DNA of 44,293 nucleotides. Source: Candidatus Parcubacteria bacterium (GTDB lineage Bacteria > Patescibacteriota > Minisyncoccia > Phycocordibacterales > UBA5272). Location: positions 1 to 44,293 of the forward strand of contig JBDLTQ010000036.1 of NCBI GenBank assembly GCA_039805745.1, written 5' to 3'. Numbering within the stretch: the first letter of the stretch is position 1; each line of letters begins with the position of its first letter. The position numbers were made by a program, and so were the translations under genes. Shown one piece after another: positions 129 to 44,293 of this stretch. The notes below the pieces were generated by a model. The model was not told where the DNA came from, did not search any database, and saw nothing but the letters and a program-made list of their open reading frames with translations.

Positions 129-2741
129 CTACTTCCCTTTATGTTTCTTAAGTACTTTTTTAAGATACTGACCGGTATAACTTTTTGCGTTTCCAGCAAC
201 ACTTTCTGGTGTCCCTGTTGCTACAATCTTTCCACCCCCAATACCACCTTCTGGACCAATGTCAATAACATGATCTGCGCACTTTACGATATCTAAGTTG
301 TGTTCAATGAGTACCACGGTGTTACCTTTATCAACAAGTTTATTTAAAATCTCAATAAGCTTCGCAATATCTTCATAATGAAGCCCAATAGAAGGCTCAT
401 CAAGAAGATATATCGTTTTCTCGACATGAGGACGATAAAGCTCAGAGGAAATCTTTACGCGCTGTGCTTCACCCCCTGACAAAGTTGTTGCTGACTGACC
501 AAGCTCAAGATATGAAAGTCCAACATCATTAAGGGTTTTGATACGGTCATGAATTGCAGGAATATCATAAAAGAAAGTGAGTGCCTCTTCTACAGTCATA
601 CGAAGGATGTCATAAATATTTTTCCCCTTCCATTTTACTTCAAGGGTTTCCTTCATAAAACGTTTTCCTTGGCAAACATCACACTCTACATACACAGTAG
701 GGAGAAAGTGCATTTCAACTGCAATCTCACCATTACCTTGGCATGCCTCACAACGACCCCCTTTTACATTAAAAGAAAATCTCGACGCTTTCCATCCTCT
801 CACTCTTGCTTCTTCAGTTTCTGCAAAAATATCACGAATATGAGTCCATGCTCCGGTATACGTTGCAGGATTTGAACGAGGGGTACGACCGATAGCAGAC
901 TGATCAATAAGTACAACTCGAGAAATATACTCTGTTCCTGTAAACTCTTCACAGTTAAAAATCTTAACCGTTCTGTGCTTACGCTCAAGGCGAGCGAGAA
1001 GGTTACGGTGGACTATTTCATACATAAATGAACTCTTACCTGACCCAGAAACCCCTGTAATAACATTAAGCCTTCCAAGTGGGATAGTGGTATTCAAATC
1101 TTTAATATTAAAAACAGTACCACCTTTTATTTTAAGAGAGCCTTTATCTTGATGCCGACGAACATCAGGGAGTGGAATCTCTTTCTCACCACGAAGATAT
1201 GAAAGTGTTACACTTCCTGATTTATTCTTTGGTGCAGTAAGCAATTCTTCGAGATCCCCCGCTACAACAACCTCACCACCATGGACTCCAGCTTTTGGAC
1301 CAATATCAACAATATAATCAGAGGCAAAAATAGTATCTTCATCATGCTCTACAACAATAATAGTATTTCCCATATCACGAAGATGTGTAAGTGTCTTTAT
1401 GAGTCTATCATTATCTCGCTGATGGAGACCGATAGTTGGTTCATCAAGAACATATAAGGCTCCTACAAGTTGAGATCCTAACTGAGACGCCAAACGTATA
1501 CGTTGCGCCTCACCACCTGATAAGGTGTCTGCTTTTCGATTAAGTGCTAAATAATCAAGCCCAACATTTAGCATAAACTCAAGCCGTGACTCAATTTCTT
1601 TGATGACAACCTGAGCAATTTCCTGCTCTTTTGGTGATAATGGTAAGCGACCAAAATAATCCCTTGCATCTTTAATGGTAAGCGATGTAATATCGACAAT
1701 GTTAATTTTTTCAACATCATCAAGATATACATGAAGGGACTCTTTACGAAGACGCTTTCCTTGGCAAACATCACACTCATCAAGACCTCCAAAATACTTT
1801 GTTCCAAGACCATTACATGTAGCACATGCTCCATATGGAGAATTGAATGAAAAAAGACGAGGCTCTATTTCTGGAAATGAAAAACCACATGAAGCACATG
1901 AAAACTTATTACTCATAATAGTACGCTCGCCCATAATATCAACCTCAAGAAGACCTTCTGTCTCCTGCACTGCACGTTCAATTGCTTCTGAGAGACGAGT
2001 AAGGGCATCTTTTTCTGTTGCTTTTGTACGTATCTCGTCTAAGGTAATAGAATCAATAAGAATAGCTATTTCATGTTTTTTATTTTTATCGAGAATAATT
2101 TGTTCACGTAAACTTTTTCTCTGACCGTCAACAATAGCTTCAGTATATCCACGCCCAAGCATGTCATATAACATTTGATAATGCTCACCCTTACGTCCAC
2201 GTACCACTGGCGCAAGGATATGTATTTCTTCATGAGAAAACTCAACACCAAGCATCTCTTTCTTCACCTTCTTGTAATCAATACCCTTAACCTTATCTAA
2301 AATAAAGTGTAAAATTTCTTCATTAGAAAGTTTTTGTATTTTTGAGCCACACTCAACACAATAAGGCTTGCCAACACGAGCATAGAGTACGCGGAGGTAG
2401 TCATATATCTCTGTAATAGTAGCAACCGTTGAGCGAGGGTTGCGCCCTGCTGATTTTTGGTCAATAGAAATTGCAGGAGAAAGACCGACTATCTCATCCA
2501 CATCAGGCTTCTGCATTTGATTAAGAAACTGTCGAGCATACGCTGACAATGACTCTACATAACGACGCTGACCTTCAGCGAAGATGGTATCAAAAGCAAG
2601 AGAAGATTTACCAGACCCAGAAAGTCCTGTGAACACAATCATCTTATGTCGAGGCATCTCAACGGTAATATTCTTAAGATTATGAGTTCTCGCACCTCGA
2701 ACGATAATTTTTTCTAAATTTTCTTGTTTTTTTGGAGCCAT
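129..2741 (-). CDS. uvrA: Excinuclease ABC subunit A
   Basis: 870 aa; two ABC ATPase modules ([31 protein letters not shown] twice), zinc-finger CxxC pairs, [10 protein letters not shown] motif. Confidence 0.98.
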
Positions 2742-40990: not shown

Positions 40991-41148
40991 AGACTTAGGA
41001 GTATACCATACAACTATTCCTACACATCTTTGACAACTGCACCACACACCTAAAAAAGTGCTTAATCTTTTCAAAAGATGTGTAACCATACCGTATGATA
41101 TAAGTCATAGTCAGGCTGTAAAACAATACTTTCTGTGTTTTGTACACA

Positions 41149-41177
41149 TTGACAAATTATATATTTTATGTTAAATT
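41149..41177 (+). promoter_or_regulatory. Sigma-70 promoter for the 41237-42088 operon
   Basis: TTGACA-17 nt-TAAATT with extended TG. Confidence 0.65.
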
Positions 41178-41236
41178 TACAAGGTAAGCCCTTTCATCAA
41201 CCAATACCCCTTTTTTGGGGAGCAAGGAGATTAATC

Positions 41237-41674
41237 ATGGAAAGCAATCGCATTCAACAATGGGTCGAAAACTATAAAATGACCCGCAACATGATGCTCT
41301 GTTGCGTCACTGTCGGACTCCTGTGCCTGTTTGCAAACGGGTACTGGGAGACAGTGCACTTTCTCCGTGACTTGTTTCAGACTGGTCTCCGACTCACCCT
41401 CGCGTTCTTCGTCTTTGTGTCTATCGGAACATTCTTGTTCAGAAAGAACATCAAGCGAGAAGCACCCTCGGGTGAAAGCATGACGACTGTGCTCATCGTT
41501 GTCGGCGGAGCGCTCTGCGTTATCCTCTTCCAACCCAGTTCTGCATGGAACACGTTTCTCCTTATCGGAAAAAACACAACCCCTGCGGTCGGTATGTTTT
41601 TCTTCTTCTGTGCAGGACTCTTGTCCACACTGATGTGGAAAATCCAAACAACCCAAAGAGTAAAGAAAGAGTAA
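41237..41674 (+). CDS. Hypothetical 4-TM membrane protein (orphan)
   Basis: AAGGAG before ATG 41237; four hydrophobic segments; higher GC. Confidence 0.7.
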   Translation: MESNRIQQWVENYKMTRNMMLCCVTVGLLCLFANGYWETVHFLRDLFQTGLRLTLAFFVFVSIGTFLFRKNIKREAPSGESMTTVLIVVGGALCVILFQPSSAWNTFLLIGKNTTPAVGMFFFFCAGLLSTLMWKIQTTQRVKKE

Positions 41675-41677
41675 ACC

Positions 41678-42088
41678 ATGAAAGCGATCTTTCGCTTCCT
41701 CCAGCGACTCGATGTCGCTGTGATGCTCGCAGTAGTATTCATTGCGATGCCAAGTGCTGTCACCTACGTCGCAACGACGTTTGGTGTCGATGTCGGACTT
41801 GTCTTCCACACTTTCCTTAGTGTGATTGGAGTCCTCCTGACGATATTTCTATTTTGGGCACTAACCGCAAAATGGAATATAGAGAAGCTCGGTCTCTTTA
41901 TCGTTTCAGCAGGTGCAGGTCTCGGTGGTGTTATCATCGCCTTCAACCTGTTCGCAGGTATCTACCAGTGGATCACACCCTCATGGTTTGAGTACTTCCA
42001 CCGTATGGGAACTCTCACTGTCATAGTGACTGCGGTATGGGGAACCTTTCTCCAGTATGTTTATATCCCTTGGATAAAAAACAACTGA
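41678..42088 (+). CDS. Hypothetical 4-TM membrane protein (orphan)
   Basis: Starts 3 nt after the upstream stop; four hydrophobic segments. Confidence 0.72.
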   Translation: MKAIFRFLQRLDVAVMLAVVFIAMPSAVTYVATTFGVDVGLVFHTFLSVIGVLLTIFLFWALTAKWNIEKLGLFIVSAGAGLGGVIIAFNLFAGIYQWITPSWFEYFHRMGTLTVIVTAVWGTFLQYVYIPWIKNN

Positions 42089-42117
42089 AAAATTCTCCCG
42101 AGAAAACCGTACACAAT

Positions 42118-42152
42118 AAAGCACTATATAAGCTTCGCTTATATAGTGCTTT
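42118..42152. terminator. Bidirectional terminator
   Basis: AAAGCACTATATAAGC-TTC-GCTTATATAGTGCTTT, 16-bp perfect stem. Confidence 0.75.
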
Positions 42153-42169
42153 TTCTTTTCTCGAGAAAA

Positions 42170-42232
42170 CTACTTCGTAGTTTTCTTTGGTTTCTTTGTT
42201 TCTTTTTTATGAGTTTTTGTTTCTTTTGCCAT
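42170..42232 (-). CDS. Putative 20-aa Lys-rich micro-protein MAKETKTHKKETKKPKKTTK
   Basis: ATG at 42232, 8 nt after TATACT (42241-42246); TAG at 42170; ends at the bidirectional terminator. Not in the ORF track. Confidence 0.55.
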   Translation of the reverse strand: MAKETKTHKKETKKPKKTTK

Positions 42233-42403
42233 ATACCTACAGTATAACGATTCTTTTATAAATCAAAAGTGGATAGCGTAGACCAAAAAATGTGTCTACA
42301 TTACTCACATAATGAGATACTTTTTCTACTCTTAGTAGGTTATTATTCATATCAAACATAAAGTAGCTACTGCGCTTACTTTTTGAACTAACCATTTTTA
42401 TTG

Positions 42404-42435
42404 TTGACAAAATACTCTATTTGATTTAATATAAT
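42404..42435 (+). promoter_or_regulatory. Sigma-70 promoter for the candidate sRNA
   Basis: TTGACA (42404-42409)-17 nt-TAATAT, overlapping TATAAT (42430-42435); no plus-strand ORF follows. Confidence 0.7.
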
Positions 42436-42439
42436 ATCA

Positions 42440-42540
42440 GTCGGGTTTTTCCTCCTCCCTCACCTCCCCGACACAGGCACTGTGAATCTTTGCCTGAAGC
42501 CCCGCTTAGGATCTCGAGCATCCAGCGGGGCTCTTTTTTT
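42440..42540 (+). ncRNA. Candidate ~100-nt small RNA with three hairpins and an anti-SD-like loop
   Basis: GUCGGG/CCCGAC stem with loop UUUUUCCUCCUCCCUCACCUC; CAGGCA/UGCCUG stem; AGCCCCGCU/AGCGGGGCU stem plus U7; GC-rich island in an AT-rich spacer. Confidence 0.65.
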
Positions 42541-42548
42541 ATATACTT

Positions 42549-42905
42549 CTACCGTTTACAGAGTTTTGACAATACTCTTCCACTTTTTATTGCTTCTTCT
42601 TCAGAGGAAAAATAAATGATATTCTTCTTTACAATTCTTGAGGCACCAGAACACCATGTGTATGTATATGTTTTGCCATATTTACTAGCAAAAGGAAGAG
42701 AGGGGCTAGTCACTGCTTTCTCATAATAACTATCTCCTTTACTATAGACAATGGGAATCTGTGTGCGTTGGCGTTCTTTATAGACAACACAAAAAAGAGC
42801 ACTAATAATAAGACATGACAAAAAAATACTGATCAAATCGACGACAGAAATCTTGCTATTGATATTTTTTAAATAATCTTGTATACTAAGGGCTCTAATA
42901 GACAT
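42549..42905 (-). CDS. Membrane-anchored protein with an Ada metal-binding-like C-terminal domain
   Basis: Single TM, then ASKYGKTY...WCSGASRIVKKNIIYFSSEEEAIKSGR...C. Confidence 0.8.
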   Translation of the reverse strand: MSIRALSIQDYLKNINSKISVVDLISIFLSCLIISALFCVVYKERQRTQIPIVYSKGDSYYEKAVTSPSLPFASKYGKTYTYTWCSGASRIVKKNIIYFSSEEEAIKSGRVLSKLCKR

Positions 42906-42922
42906 TGTTTTAAGTATACGCT

Positions 42923-43204
42923 ATGGCAACCCGTAAAGCCGCAGGTTCGGCAAAAAACCTAACAGATAGTAAACCAAAGTACCTCGGTACTAAGCTTTAC
43001 GCAGGAGAAATGGCTACCGCTGGCGCTATTATTGTTCGTCAGCGAGGTACTCGCATCCTTCCTGGTAAAAATGTTGGTCTTGGAAAAGATCACACCCTTT
43101 ATGCTCTCGCAGAAGGAAAAGTCTCTTTCGGAGAACGACGAATGAAGCATCTCGATGGAACAACAAAAAGAAAGAAAGTTGCAAACATTGAGCCAGCTCA
43201 ATAA
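42923..43204 (+). CDS. rpmA: 50S ribosomal protein L27
   Basis: MATRKAAGS...DSKPKYLG...IIVRQRGT...[15 protein letters not shown]. Confidence 0.97.
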
Positions 43205-43222
43205 ATAACTATCACAACAACA

Positions 43223-43256
43223 ATAAAAAATACTGACACCTGTCAGTATTTTTTAT
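43223..43256 (+). terminator. Terminator after rpmA
   Basis: ATAAAAAATACTGACA-CC-TGTCAGTATTTTTTAT. Confidence 0.7.
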
Positions 43257-43386
43257 ATCCCATTCTTTAAAATTTTCTTATTTCTATATCTATCCATATA
43301 CATTAAAAAATGATAGAATTAGCTGAACGGGAATATTCTTATATTTCCCGTATTTTCTTTTTTAACATCAGAAAAAGGGATCCTCT

Positions 43387-43632
43387 GTGAAAAAGTATAT
43401 TTCTTACAAGTGTTGTTTTGTTGCAACTACCATCTTGTTCTTTTTATCAATTATTTTTGCTTCTTGGAAAATATTACAATACCGAGAACTTGGTTCACCA
43501 ACGCTTTTTATTATTATAAAAGCATGGGGACTTGTTGGTGTTGTAGTCTTTTTTTCAGTTCTTTTTCTTTTCTTTGAAAAGAAATCGGAGGAAGAAAAAT
43601 TCCTCAACGAACGCAAAAAAGTAATTGAATAA
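43387..43632 (+). CDS. Small 2-TM hypothetical protein
   Basis: GTG start after AAGGGA; two hydrophobic helices; hairpin after the stop. Confidence 0.55.
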   Translation: MKKYISYKCCFVATTILFFLSIIFASWKILQYRELGSPTLFIIIKAWGLVGVVVFFSVLFLFFEKKSEEEKFLNERKKVIE

Positions 43633-43649
43633 GGACATAACTAATCAAC

Positions 43650-43679
43650 AATCACCGGTTAACTTAACCGGTGATTTTT
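43650..43679. terminator. Bidirectional terminator
   Basis: AATCACCGGTTAA-C-TTAACCGGTGATT between convergent genes. Confidence 0.65.
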
Positions 43680-43709
43680 CATATCATACTCACTGTAACC
43701 ACATCAAAG

Positions 43710-44150
43710 CTAGATAACCTCAACAACAACATCAGCAACCTTGTCACCTTGTTTAATTTGTACAGTATGTTTCCCGATTGATTTTAGTGTATGTGGCACA
43801 AGTATCTGTTTAGGGTCAATAGATAATCTAACTGTTTCGAAAATAGCATCAGCAATATCAGTATCTCTAATATGTGCAAAAAGCTGACCTTTATCATCAT
43901 ACTTTTTATTTCGTATAAGAACTCTTGATGTTCTCAATGCTTCGACAAGAGACAGAAAAGTATTGAGGGCGACATCTTTTTGGCGTTTTTTACTCTCTTC
44001 TTTTGTTTTCCATTTTGATAACTCAGCAGGTGTTGCTTGTAGCGCATCACCCTTCTTAATTAAGACATTCACAGCATACGCATCAGAAACATCCTTTACT
44101 TCACCACGCTTACCAAGTTTTGCAGTATCCCGTAATAGTATTACTTTCAT
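43710..44150 (-). CDS. rplI: 50S ribosomal protein L9
   Basis: MKVILLRDTAKLGKRGEVKDVSDAYAVNVLI...A...AT, GQLF, LKSIGKHTV; start at ATG 44150. Confidence 0.93.
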   Translation of the reverse strand: MKVILLRDTAKLGKRGEVKDVSDAYAVNVLIKKGDALQATPAELSKWKTKEESKKRQKDVALNTFLSLVEALRTSRVLIRNKKYDDKGQLFAHIRDTDIADAIFETVRLSIDPKQILVPHTLKSIGKHTVQIKQGDKVADVVVEVI

Positions 44151-44177
44151 AATAAATACAGTATAACACAAAACCCC

Positions 44178-44291
44178 CTACCTCCCCTCCACCTTCTTCC
44201 TCGTCATCTCTCCAAAGATACCAGTACCTTTAGTGAGCATAAGTGGGGTAAGGATTTCATCTGCATAGAATTCTTGGAAACGGATAAGGGC
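44178..44291 (-). CDS. 3' end of a peptidoglycan-binding-domain protein (truncated by the window edge)
   Basis: Manual translation ALIRFQEFYADEILTPLMLTKGTGIFGEMTRKKVEGR*, resembling PG_binding_1 C-termini. Confidence 0.75.
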   Translation of the reverse strand, partial: ALIRFQEFYADEILTPLMLTKGTGIFGEMTRKKVEGR

Positions 44292-44293
44292 AC

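Follow-up and report, generated by a model that had tools for sequence, protein, structure and literature searches.

A predicted small RNA gene with an exposed CCUCC loop in a Parcubacteria genome whose 16S rRNA tail has no anti-Shine-Dalgarno motif

Contig JBDLTQ010000036.1 of Candidatus Parcubacteria bacterium (assembly GCA_039805745.1) carries a compact intergenic element at positions 42404-42540 of the 44,293-nucleotide (nt) stretch of DNA analyzed here, the whole of which is termed the window. Read from the sequence, the element consists of a promoter, three hairpins, and a 9-bp terminator stem followed by seven U residues, and it lies between a convergent gene for a 118-amino-acid (aa) protein and a tiny lysine-rich open reading frame (ORF) (Table 1). 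The element is very probably a real small regulatory RNA (sRNA) with an exposed loop that resembles the anti-Shine-Dalgarno (anti-SD) sequence of 16S rRNA. On balance it is probable that this is an independent sRNA of about 101 nt, that it belongs to a fast-evolving, genus-wide family, and that it acts by base pairing in trans in the manner of the cuckoo and anti-hemB RNAs. The only conserved sequence of the family is CCUCC/CUCCC, held single-stranded in the loop of the 5' hairpin. The genome carrying the window (G000) comprises 730,701 bases and is 95.8% complete.

Anatomy of the element

The promoter is of the sigma-70 type, and transcription is predicted to start near 42439/42440. Minimum free energy (MFE) folding of positions 42434-42545 with ViennaRNA gives exactly three hairpins at -38.9 kcal/mol (z = -4.14), and only 1 of 200 dinucleotide shuffles folds as well. 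The opposite strand is nearly as foldable (z = -3.38), so the strand is taken from the promoter and the U-tract and not from the fold. When the minus strand is read, UUCAGG and no U-tract follows the terminator hairpin, and the terminator is therefore oriented for the plus strand; a simple terminator scan does not list it because its loop exceeds the limit of the scan. By itself the promoter match does not exceed chance (the AT-rich region 41000-44293 has 10 such sites, with 8.6 expected); its weight comes from relatives. The promoter with its 17-nt spacing, the three hairpins, the 9-bp stem with U7, and the pyrimidine loop, all of which the original prediction had read from the letters of the window, agree with both the sequence and the MFE fold.

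The loop of hairpin 1 is 21 nt long (42446-42466), and 20 of its 21 positions are pyrimidines. It holds CCUCCUCCC and UCACCUC(C), the latter running on into the stem, as well as UCACCUCC, and CCTCCTCCC lies within it at 42451-42459. This pyrimidine loop is presumed to be the seed or recognition loop. Elsewhere in G000, a single other intergenic CCUCC-loop hairpin with a T-run is found, and it is weaker (C5:34424-34449).

The element has a far higher G+C content than the genome (56% versus 37.7%) and is single-copy in G000. The only plus-strand ORFs at the element (42482-42619 and 42490-42615) both run through the terminator, and neither fits the RNA. The contigs of four DNA sequencing runs contain only short pieces identical to the window, one of them spanning 42365-42550, and no variants.

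Table 1. Positions of the element's parts and of the flanking genes in the window.
Feature	Position	Strand	Description	Basis
Sigma-70-type promoter	TTGACA 42404-42409; TAATAT 42427-42432	+	17-nt spacer	Sequence match
Predicted small RNA	42439-42540	+	About 101 nt, 56% G+C	Fold, promoter, terminator
Hairpin 1	42440-42472	+	6-bp stem; arms GUCGGG 42440-42445 and CCCGAC 42467-42472	
Hairpin 2	42474-42496	+	6-bp stem CAGGCA/UGCCUG; 11-nt loop without CCUCC	MFE fold
Intrinsic terminator	42498-42540	+	G+C-rich 9-bp outer stem 42498-42506/42524-42532, inner 4-bp stem, C, U7 at 42534-42540	
118-aa gene	42549-42905	-	Convergent; stop 9 nt from the U-tract; synteny anchor	Homologues in 48 of 53 genus genomes
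Lys-rich 20-aa ORF	42170-42232	-	MAKETKTHKKETKKPKKTTK; other side of the slot	Similar ORF of 19-23 aa in 31 of the 45 syntenic loci that span 300 nt or more

Conservation across the genus

In a BLASTN search, the 142-nt element finds nothing beyond G000 among 60 relatives at E < 1e-3. The best other match (E = 0.0055) was rejected since it covers the promoter part only, and 16 weak matches to the loop region were rejected as coding-like and devoid of hairpin or terminator context. Relatives were compared by synteny. At all 48 loci with the 118-aa gene, 455 nt beyond its stop were taken (contig ends shortened three of these), and elements were picked by promoter score, terminator energy, and G+C content, with no use of the CCUCC motif. 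The rule picked 23 loci; L028 was dropped as a false AT-rich pick, leaving 22 including G000.

A promoter, a GC-rich RNA, and a terminator thus occupy the same slot in the same orientation at 22 of the 48 loci. The element lies 1-28 nt from the 118-aa stop in 20 of the 22 cases, at 108 nt in G074, and at 243 nt in G071. The locus of G027, which is cut by a contig end and stands outside the 22, also has the element by its Rfam match. Perfect TTGACA heads 17 of the 22 elements, a count that is partly biased because the extraction rule demanded at least 4 of 6 matches. Slot variants in G023, G065, and G018 are unclear in type; in G023, one of the closest relatives, the slot (L028) holds an RNA-like element with a C-rich loop, GCCCCCCCUG, that lacks CCUCC.

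Every one of the 22 elements contains CCTCC or CTCCC, with 66 occurrences versus 4 of GGAGG/GGGAG on the same strand. The motif is fully unpaired in the MFE fold of 19 elements, compared with a mean of 3.6 and a maximum of 9 in 200 dinucleotide shuffles. Apart from the U-tract, the only enriched 5-mers are CTCCC (in 22 elements), CCTCC (21), and TCCTC (20), where about 6 are expected. The stems that close the motif-bearing loops differ completely between species, the 22 sequences are too diverged to align, and neither the sequence nor the number of hairpins is conserved in the middle region; some relatives (e.g., G028 and G066) have two motif-bearing loops. The pentamer TGTGA after hairpin 1, tried as a further 16S-tail-like motif, was rejected, being present in 6 of the 22 elements and absent from the enriched 5-mers.

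The G000 copy has the slot and orientation of the genus family, running convergently to the 118-aa gene and lying upstream of the tiny Lys-rich ORF. Like the family, it combines a promoter of its own, a CCUCC/CUCCC exposed close to the 5' end, and an intrinsic terminator. Judged by sequence, the element is a conserved non-coding RNA gene. The original prediction of a self-contained non-coding RNA gene is upheld by the recurrence of the loop motif and a closing stem at these 22 of 48 loci. Conservation of loop and stem in relatives, proposed at the time as a check, is likewise found, in that the motif is present in all 22 elements, mostly unpaired, and accompanied by compensatory changes in a subgroup.

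This subgroup comprises nine sequences that resemble anti-hemB. Under a 7-bp hairpin model, 98.3% of its cells pair and 6 of the 7 pairs change on both sides; the pairing is reached by none of 500 shuffles, and slid controls pair at 21-49%. These figures lean towards structure because the alignment was fitted to the model. A MAFFT alignment of 12 hairpins aligned the loops and not the stems and was left out of the pair counts. The Rfam gathering cut-off of anti-hemB (RF02837), 49.5 bits, is exceeded by G027 (62.7 bits) and G028 (50.5 bits), while G067 (45.8 bits), G013 (40 bits), G016 (38.9 bits), and G076 (37.6 bits) fall below it. Extra anti-hemB-type copies occur at other loci in G066 (three in all), G073:C1, and G008:C23. 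Across 20 relatives' loci, anti-hemB is matched in the subgroup only, and the remaining matches are to unrelated families below their cut-offs.

The G000 copy itself stands further away. An Rfam scan of the whole window finds no family at its gathering score, and an anti-hemB search of the whole G000 genome gives no match at E <= 0.1. In a lenient scan of 42250-42700 (451 nt), only ar14 (RF02344; 18 bits, E = 0.34) and anti-hemB (17.3 bits, E = 0.14) match the element; both alignments set CCUCC in the loop. The original prediction, which did not recognize the RNA as tRNA, SRP, 6S, tmRNA, or RNase P, named an Rfam match as a ground for giving it up, and such a match is half there. Two relatives pass the anti-hemB cut-off but the G000 copy fails it, and by score it is no family member, yet it resembles known CCUCC-loop sRNAs.

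Outside the genus, weak anti-hemB matches (23-28 bits) occur in 11 of 148 genomes from the order's other families, and control genomes give such matches in 3 of 14; of 12 out-of-genus matches inspected, just two (G189 and G143) look like the family. Across the genus, a promoter-plus-CCTCC pattern is found at 64 places versus 30 in the control, and further CCUCC-bearing transcripts may exist. Two promoter-proximal CCUCC sequences recur, one forming a GAGG...CCUC hairpin and the other ending ...GGGACA..CCCCUCC, at two groups of sites (G009:C3:60731, G006:C61:2082, and G007:C10:4085; G062:C20:3535, G071:C9:5984, and G026:C2:96788); they may represent further conserved small RNAs or leaders.

The 118-aa protein that anchors the slot gives no Pfam match at E <= 0.01, and its homologues across the genus are 35-49% identical. 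PF02805 is carried by only 16-28% of the members of its atlas neighbors, and a membrane-anchored product with a C-terminal Ada_Zn_binding/ArfC-like domain is a lead only. The 20-aa Lys-rich ORF on the other side looks leaderless, with TATACT 8 nt before its ATG, and its stop falls inside a hairpin at 42163-42187. A DnaA-box-like T(T/C)ATCCAC box lies at most 70 nt upstream of the tiny-ORF ATG in 15 of 31 loci; the G000 variant is CTATCCAC.

Host ribosome, gene starts, and the role of the RNA

The 16S rRNA of G000 ends in GGAUUAAUUCAAUG, where the Rfam small-subunit (SSU) rRNA model has GAUCACCUCCUUU, and the alignment extends through the last position of the model. The CCUCC whose retention in 16S rRNA the original prediction had put forward for checking is thus absent from the host tail; the only other CCUCC in this 16S rRNA is a single internal site, with none near the 3' end. 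The gene is split over contigs C2 and C8, its 3' part lying on the latter (G000:C8:1-578, L074), and a 97-nt A/U-rich insertion relative to the SSU model is present at about 120-216 of L074. All 27 readable 16S 3' ends in the genus have the same tail without an anti-SD. Of 30 loci fetched, these are what remained once three had been dropped, namely an 18S of eukaryote type in G036 and two false matches with one mismatch each; the 18S 3' end (L082, G036:C7:4256-4269) is probably assembly contamination. In the order, CCTCC occurs 24-36 nt after a conserved anchor in 0 of 151 genomes, the anchor being present in 32 of a 46-genome draw. Among 20 tails from other families, helix 45 leads into an A/U-rich tail that lacks CCUCC in 19, and one diverges directly after the anchor.

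Conservation of the replacement tail of the genus, GGAUUAAUUCAAUGUGAAA, is strong and continues past the usual end of 16S rRNA, suggesting that the tail itself has a function. A Parcubacteria subgroup overlapping the group without uL1 has already been described as having lost the anti-SD (PMC9297842). Neither uL1 (PF00687) nor Era (TIGR00436; best score 28.1 bits, with a cut-off of 116) is found in the 95.8%-complete G000, and both absences fit published ribosome reductions in the candidate phyla radiation (CPR).

Gene starts in G000 look mostly leaderless, as the original prediction had supposed: among 579 crude starts, -10-like boxes pile up with their ends 7-11 nt ahead of the ATG, and 65% of the starts have T at position -1. 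A minority retains SD-like leaders. AGGAG(G)-type motifs lie 3-10 nt before the ATG in 34 of the 579 crude genes (about 6%), and AAGGAG-N4-9-ATG occurs 92 times versus 33 times in a backwards control. The excess is present in all 53 genus genomes (median ratio 1.73). SD-led genes include many with secreted or membrane, hypothetical, and nucleotide-salvage products, and the five sites named in the original prediction, before 31733, 34956, 41237, 20255 (minus strand), and 43387, are indeed all present at SD-like spacing.

The gene for dCTP deaminase (at C27:30219 in G000) is found in 11 of the 53 genomes. In its 10 relatives, five copies have a clear GGAG 6-9 nt upstream in leaders that are otherwise different, two have the motif with an unresolved start, one is weak, and two are unreadable, so that eight are readable. 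Upstream of dCTP deaminase in G009, G006, and G071 (L172, L173, and L177), a conserved stretch of about 30 nt (GTGTAGGATTGTAC.CAGCCCCG.AAGGGA) separates a terminator from the SD-like site, and it may be a regulatory leader.

In the favored explanation, the exposed C/U-rich loop would act in trans as a seed on short G-rich (GGAGG-like) stretches of mRNA. Pairing at or near start codons would then occlude initiation or change the stability of the mRNA. Predicted duplexes of the loop with SD-like leaders have energies of -12.9 to -16.5 kcal/mol. Hfq, which may assist by binding the U-tail in G000, is encoded there (99.6 bits, C5:24559-24744, minus strand); the genome thus combines an hfq gene with a terminator hairpin and a U-tract of at least 6 (U7). 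In G027, hfq is present as two tandem copies, one with an in-frame TGA.

Several results weigh against this explanation. Public run listings show no RNA run for this DNA. The closest relatives by the 118-aa protein (G008, G020, and G032) lack the element at the slot. Two covariance models of the 7-bp hairpin built from the subgroup (R1 and R2) recover its nine members and not the G000 copy (L026) at E <= 10, and the loop is 21 nt long in G000 versus 8-12 nt in the subgroup; because the models do not reach it, the family membership of the G000 copy rests on slot, orientation, architecture, and motif. When the loop is matched against windows from -35 to +15 of 581 crude genes, 21 reach -12 kcal/mol or better, compared with 24 for the reversed loop, and internal coding windows do better than start windows, with 68 at that level. 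In five relatives that share the UUCCUCCCUG loop, its 10-nt complement gives 193 matches versus 179 in controls, and no conserved site was found in 5' untranslated regions (UTRs). A complement match kept in five genomes was rejected, as it corresponds to sense codons, namely the F-L-P-G with which rpmI (L35) ends. Only 19 of the 53 genus genomes have hfq, and the gene shows no association with the RNA, occurring in 9 of 23 genomes that have the RNA and in 8 of 20 that do not. Lastly, competition with 16S rRNA for the SD site does not apply as such, because the ribosome has no anti-SD.

The surviving SD-like leaders raise the possibility that the RNA is their dedicated, class-wide reader, the main CCUCC molecule of the cell, which would occlude these leaders (they precede about 6% of genes, in many cases accessory, secreted, or nucleotide-salvage ones) as a class and so act as a global silencer, or, in the extreme form, would serve as an anti-SD in trans that aids their translation. 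The absence of the anti-SD from the host, genus, and order tails favors this idea, as do the persistence of SD-like motifs, the GGAG of dCTP deaminase in five of eight readable orthologues, and the UCACCUCC in the loop with its predicted duplexes. Yet the SD-like excess is the same in 23 genomes with the syntenic RNA as in 20 without it (median 1.65 versus 1.79, Mann-Whitney p = 0.5; the other 10 of the 53, being unclear, are excluded), and in G009, G006, and G069 the SD-like leader of dCTP deaminase persists with no RNA at the slot. The order outside the genus, also devoid of the anti-SD, has only the weak matches given above, at 11 of 148 genomes against 3 of 14 controls, and there is no sign of the RNA docking on the 30S subunit. 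A class-wide reader is therefore unlikely. With loop-complementary sites not enriched at gene starts and the SD-like excess independent of the RNA, the original prediction of a trans regulator of SD-led mRNAs gains no backing in that form. Its other suggestion, that the RNA substitutes in trans for the ribosomal anti-SD, is unlikely as a requirement because the order beyond the genus is mostly without such an RNA; that the RNA supplies the anti-SD in trans to a ribosome lacking it is highly improbable.

In a possible partnership in cis with the convergent 118-aa gene, whose 3' end the terminator and body of the element would overlap, the RNA could act as an antisense that pairs with read-through mRNA, by interfering with transcription, or as a terminator or insulator common to both. 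The short distance to the 118-aa stop in 20 of 22 syntenic cases agrees with this, and the terminator has no minus-strand U-tract, so a 118-aa transcript could read into the RNA antisense. However, the search with the 118-aa protein did not place that gene beside several anti-hemB-type copies (G016:C5, G073:C1, G008:C23, and two extra ones in G066:C14), the gene is present without the RNA in about half of the genus, and conservation of the CCUCC loop alone amid sequence turnover is left unexplained, all of which makes a cis role improbable. It is more doubtful still that the loop is a decoy for an RNA-binding protein, which it would titrate by mimicking either the 16S 3' tail or a different C/U-rich ligand. 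The loop does copy the UCACCUCC part of the canonical tail, Hfq is encoded, and the KH domain of Era binds GAUCACCUCC in other bacteria (PMC10582724). But neither Era, as noted above, nor ProQ is found in G000, Hfq and the RNA are not associated across the genus, and the locus is linked to no candidate protein. A functionless GC-rich relic or decaying mobile element, with promoter- and terminator-like sequence by chance, would fit the patchy occurrence within the genus, the nearest relatives without the element, and the local frequency of promoter-like sites, which are no rarer than chance. It would not fit the retention of motif and exposure across 22 species whose 118-aa proteins are 35-49% identical, the compensatory stem changes, or the strand asymmetry of the motif (66 versus 4), and it is very improbable.

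If the RNA is expressed, it would be a rare point of access to post-transcriptional regulation in a lineage that is uncultured and has ultra-small genomes. CCUCC-loop sRNAs are usually understood as anti-SD mimics that compete for the ribosome-binding sites of mRNAs. Conservation of the same device where the ribosome has no anti-SD would mean that pairing with GGAGG is separable from competition with the ribosome, and the canonical SD-like leaders kept on a minority of genes raise the question of what reads them.

Comparison with known CCUCC-loop RNAs

In RsaE/RoxS, Xanthomonas sX13, the streptococcal csRNAs, and the Betaproteobacteria toxic sRNA (RF02278), an exposed C-rich loop pairs with G-rich ribosome-binding sites. 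Models of other C-rich-loop, SD-targeting sRNAs give no match at E <= 10 in the 451-nt scan.

The closest likeness in the loop is to the alphaproteobacterial cuckoo RNAs (ar14, RSs0680/CcsR, and NfeR1), whose hairpin loop carries exactly CCUCCUCCC, as does hairpin 1 of G000. As described by Reinkensmeier and Giegerich in 2015 (PMC4615179), this loop is anti-SD-like, and it alone is conserved while the stems vary by compensatory mutation. The genus family shares this loop-only conservation and stem turnover, and in both cases the RNA ends in a terminator and some genomes have several copies. In contrast, cuckoo RNAs are defined in that description by two to four adjacent motif-bearing hairpins, whereas the G000 copy has the motif in hairpin 1 only and scores 18 bits against the 58.8-bit cut-off of ar14. 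The hosts also differ: the copy described here resides in a 0.73-Mb genome of the Minisyncoccota type (the atlas label) without a 16S anti-SD, and cuckoo RNAs in proteobacteria. An identical 18-nt loop occurs in a cuckoo-like context on one Bauldia contig, 1 of 101 matching stretches in genome contigs; four of these passed a filter for pairing arms plus a T-run, and only the Bauldia stretch is sRNA-like. On this contig of an uncultured Bauldia sp. (L303, about 1621-1890, plus strand), the first loop is identical over 18 nt and a second loop, UUUCCUCCCC, lies in the terminator. In metagenome contigs, among 80 of at least 116 stretches with the 18-nt loop, the only one to pass the same filter was rejected as not sRNA-like.

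The anti-hemB RNAs share the overall arrangement, namely a 5' hairpin in which a stem closes a UCCUCCCUGAG loop, then another hairpin and a terminator. Weinberg et al. (2007, PMC1950547) proposed them as non-coding RNAs, and the genes downstream of them often lie on the other strand; that paper and a 2026 preprint give their function as proposals only. Unlike them, the G000 copy scores only 17.3 bits and has no hemB context; homology, transfer, and convergence are alike possible for the CPR copies. Among the papers listed in literature searches, none reports on CCUCC-loop sRNAs in CPR bacteria.

The canonical 16S 3' tail is the remaining point of comparison, as its core UCACCUCC (in the Rfam SSU consensus) is also present in the loop. 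Unlike the tail, the loop sits in a hairpin of a separate predicted transcript of about 100 nt, and the tail of the host has no CCUCC. The kind of RNA is known, and what is new is its occurrence in a Minisyncoccota-type host with a ribosome that lacks the anti-SD; most members of the family, the G000 copy included, have diverged beyond existing models. The RNA most likely works in the manner of the proteobacterial CCUCC-loop sRNAs (cuckoo/ar14/CcsR/NfeR1 and anti-hemB).

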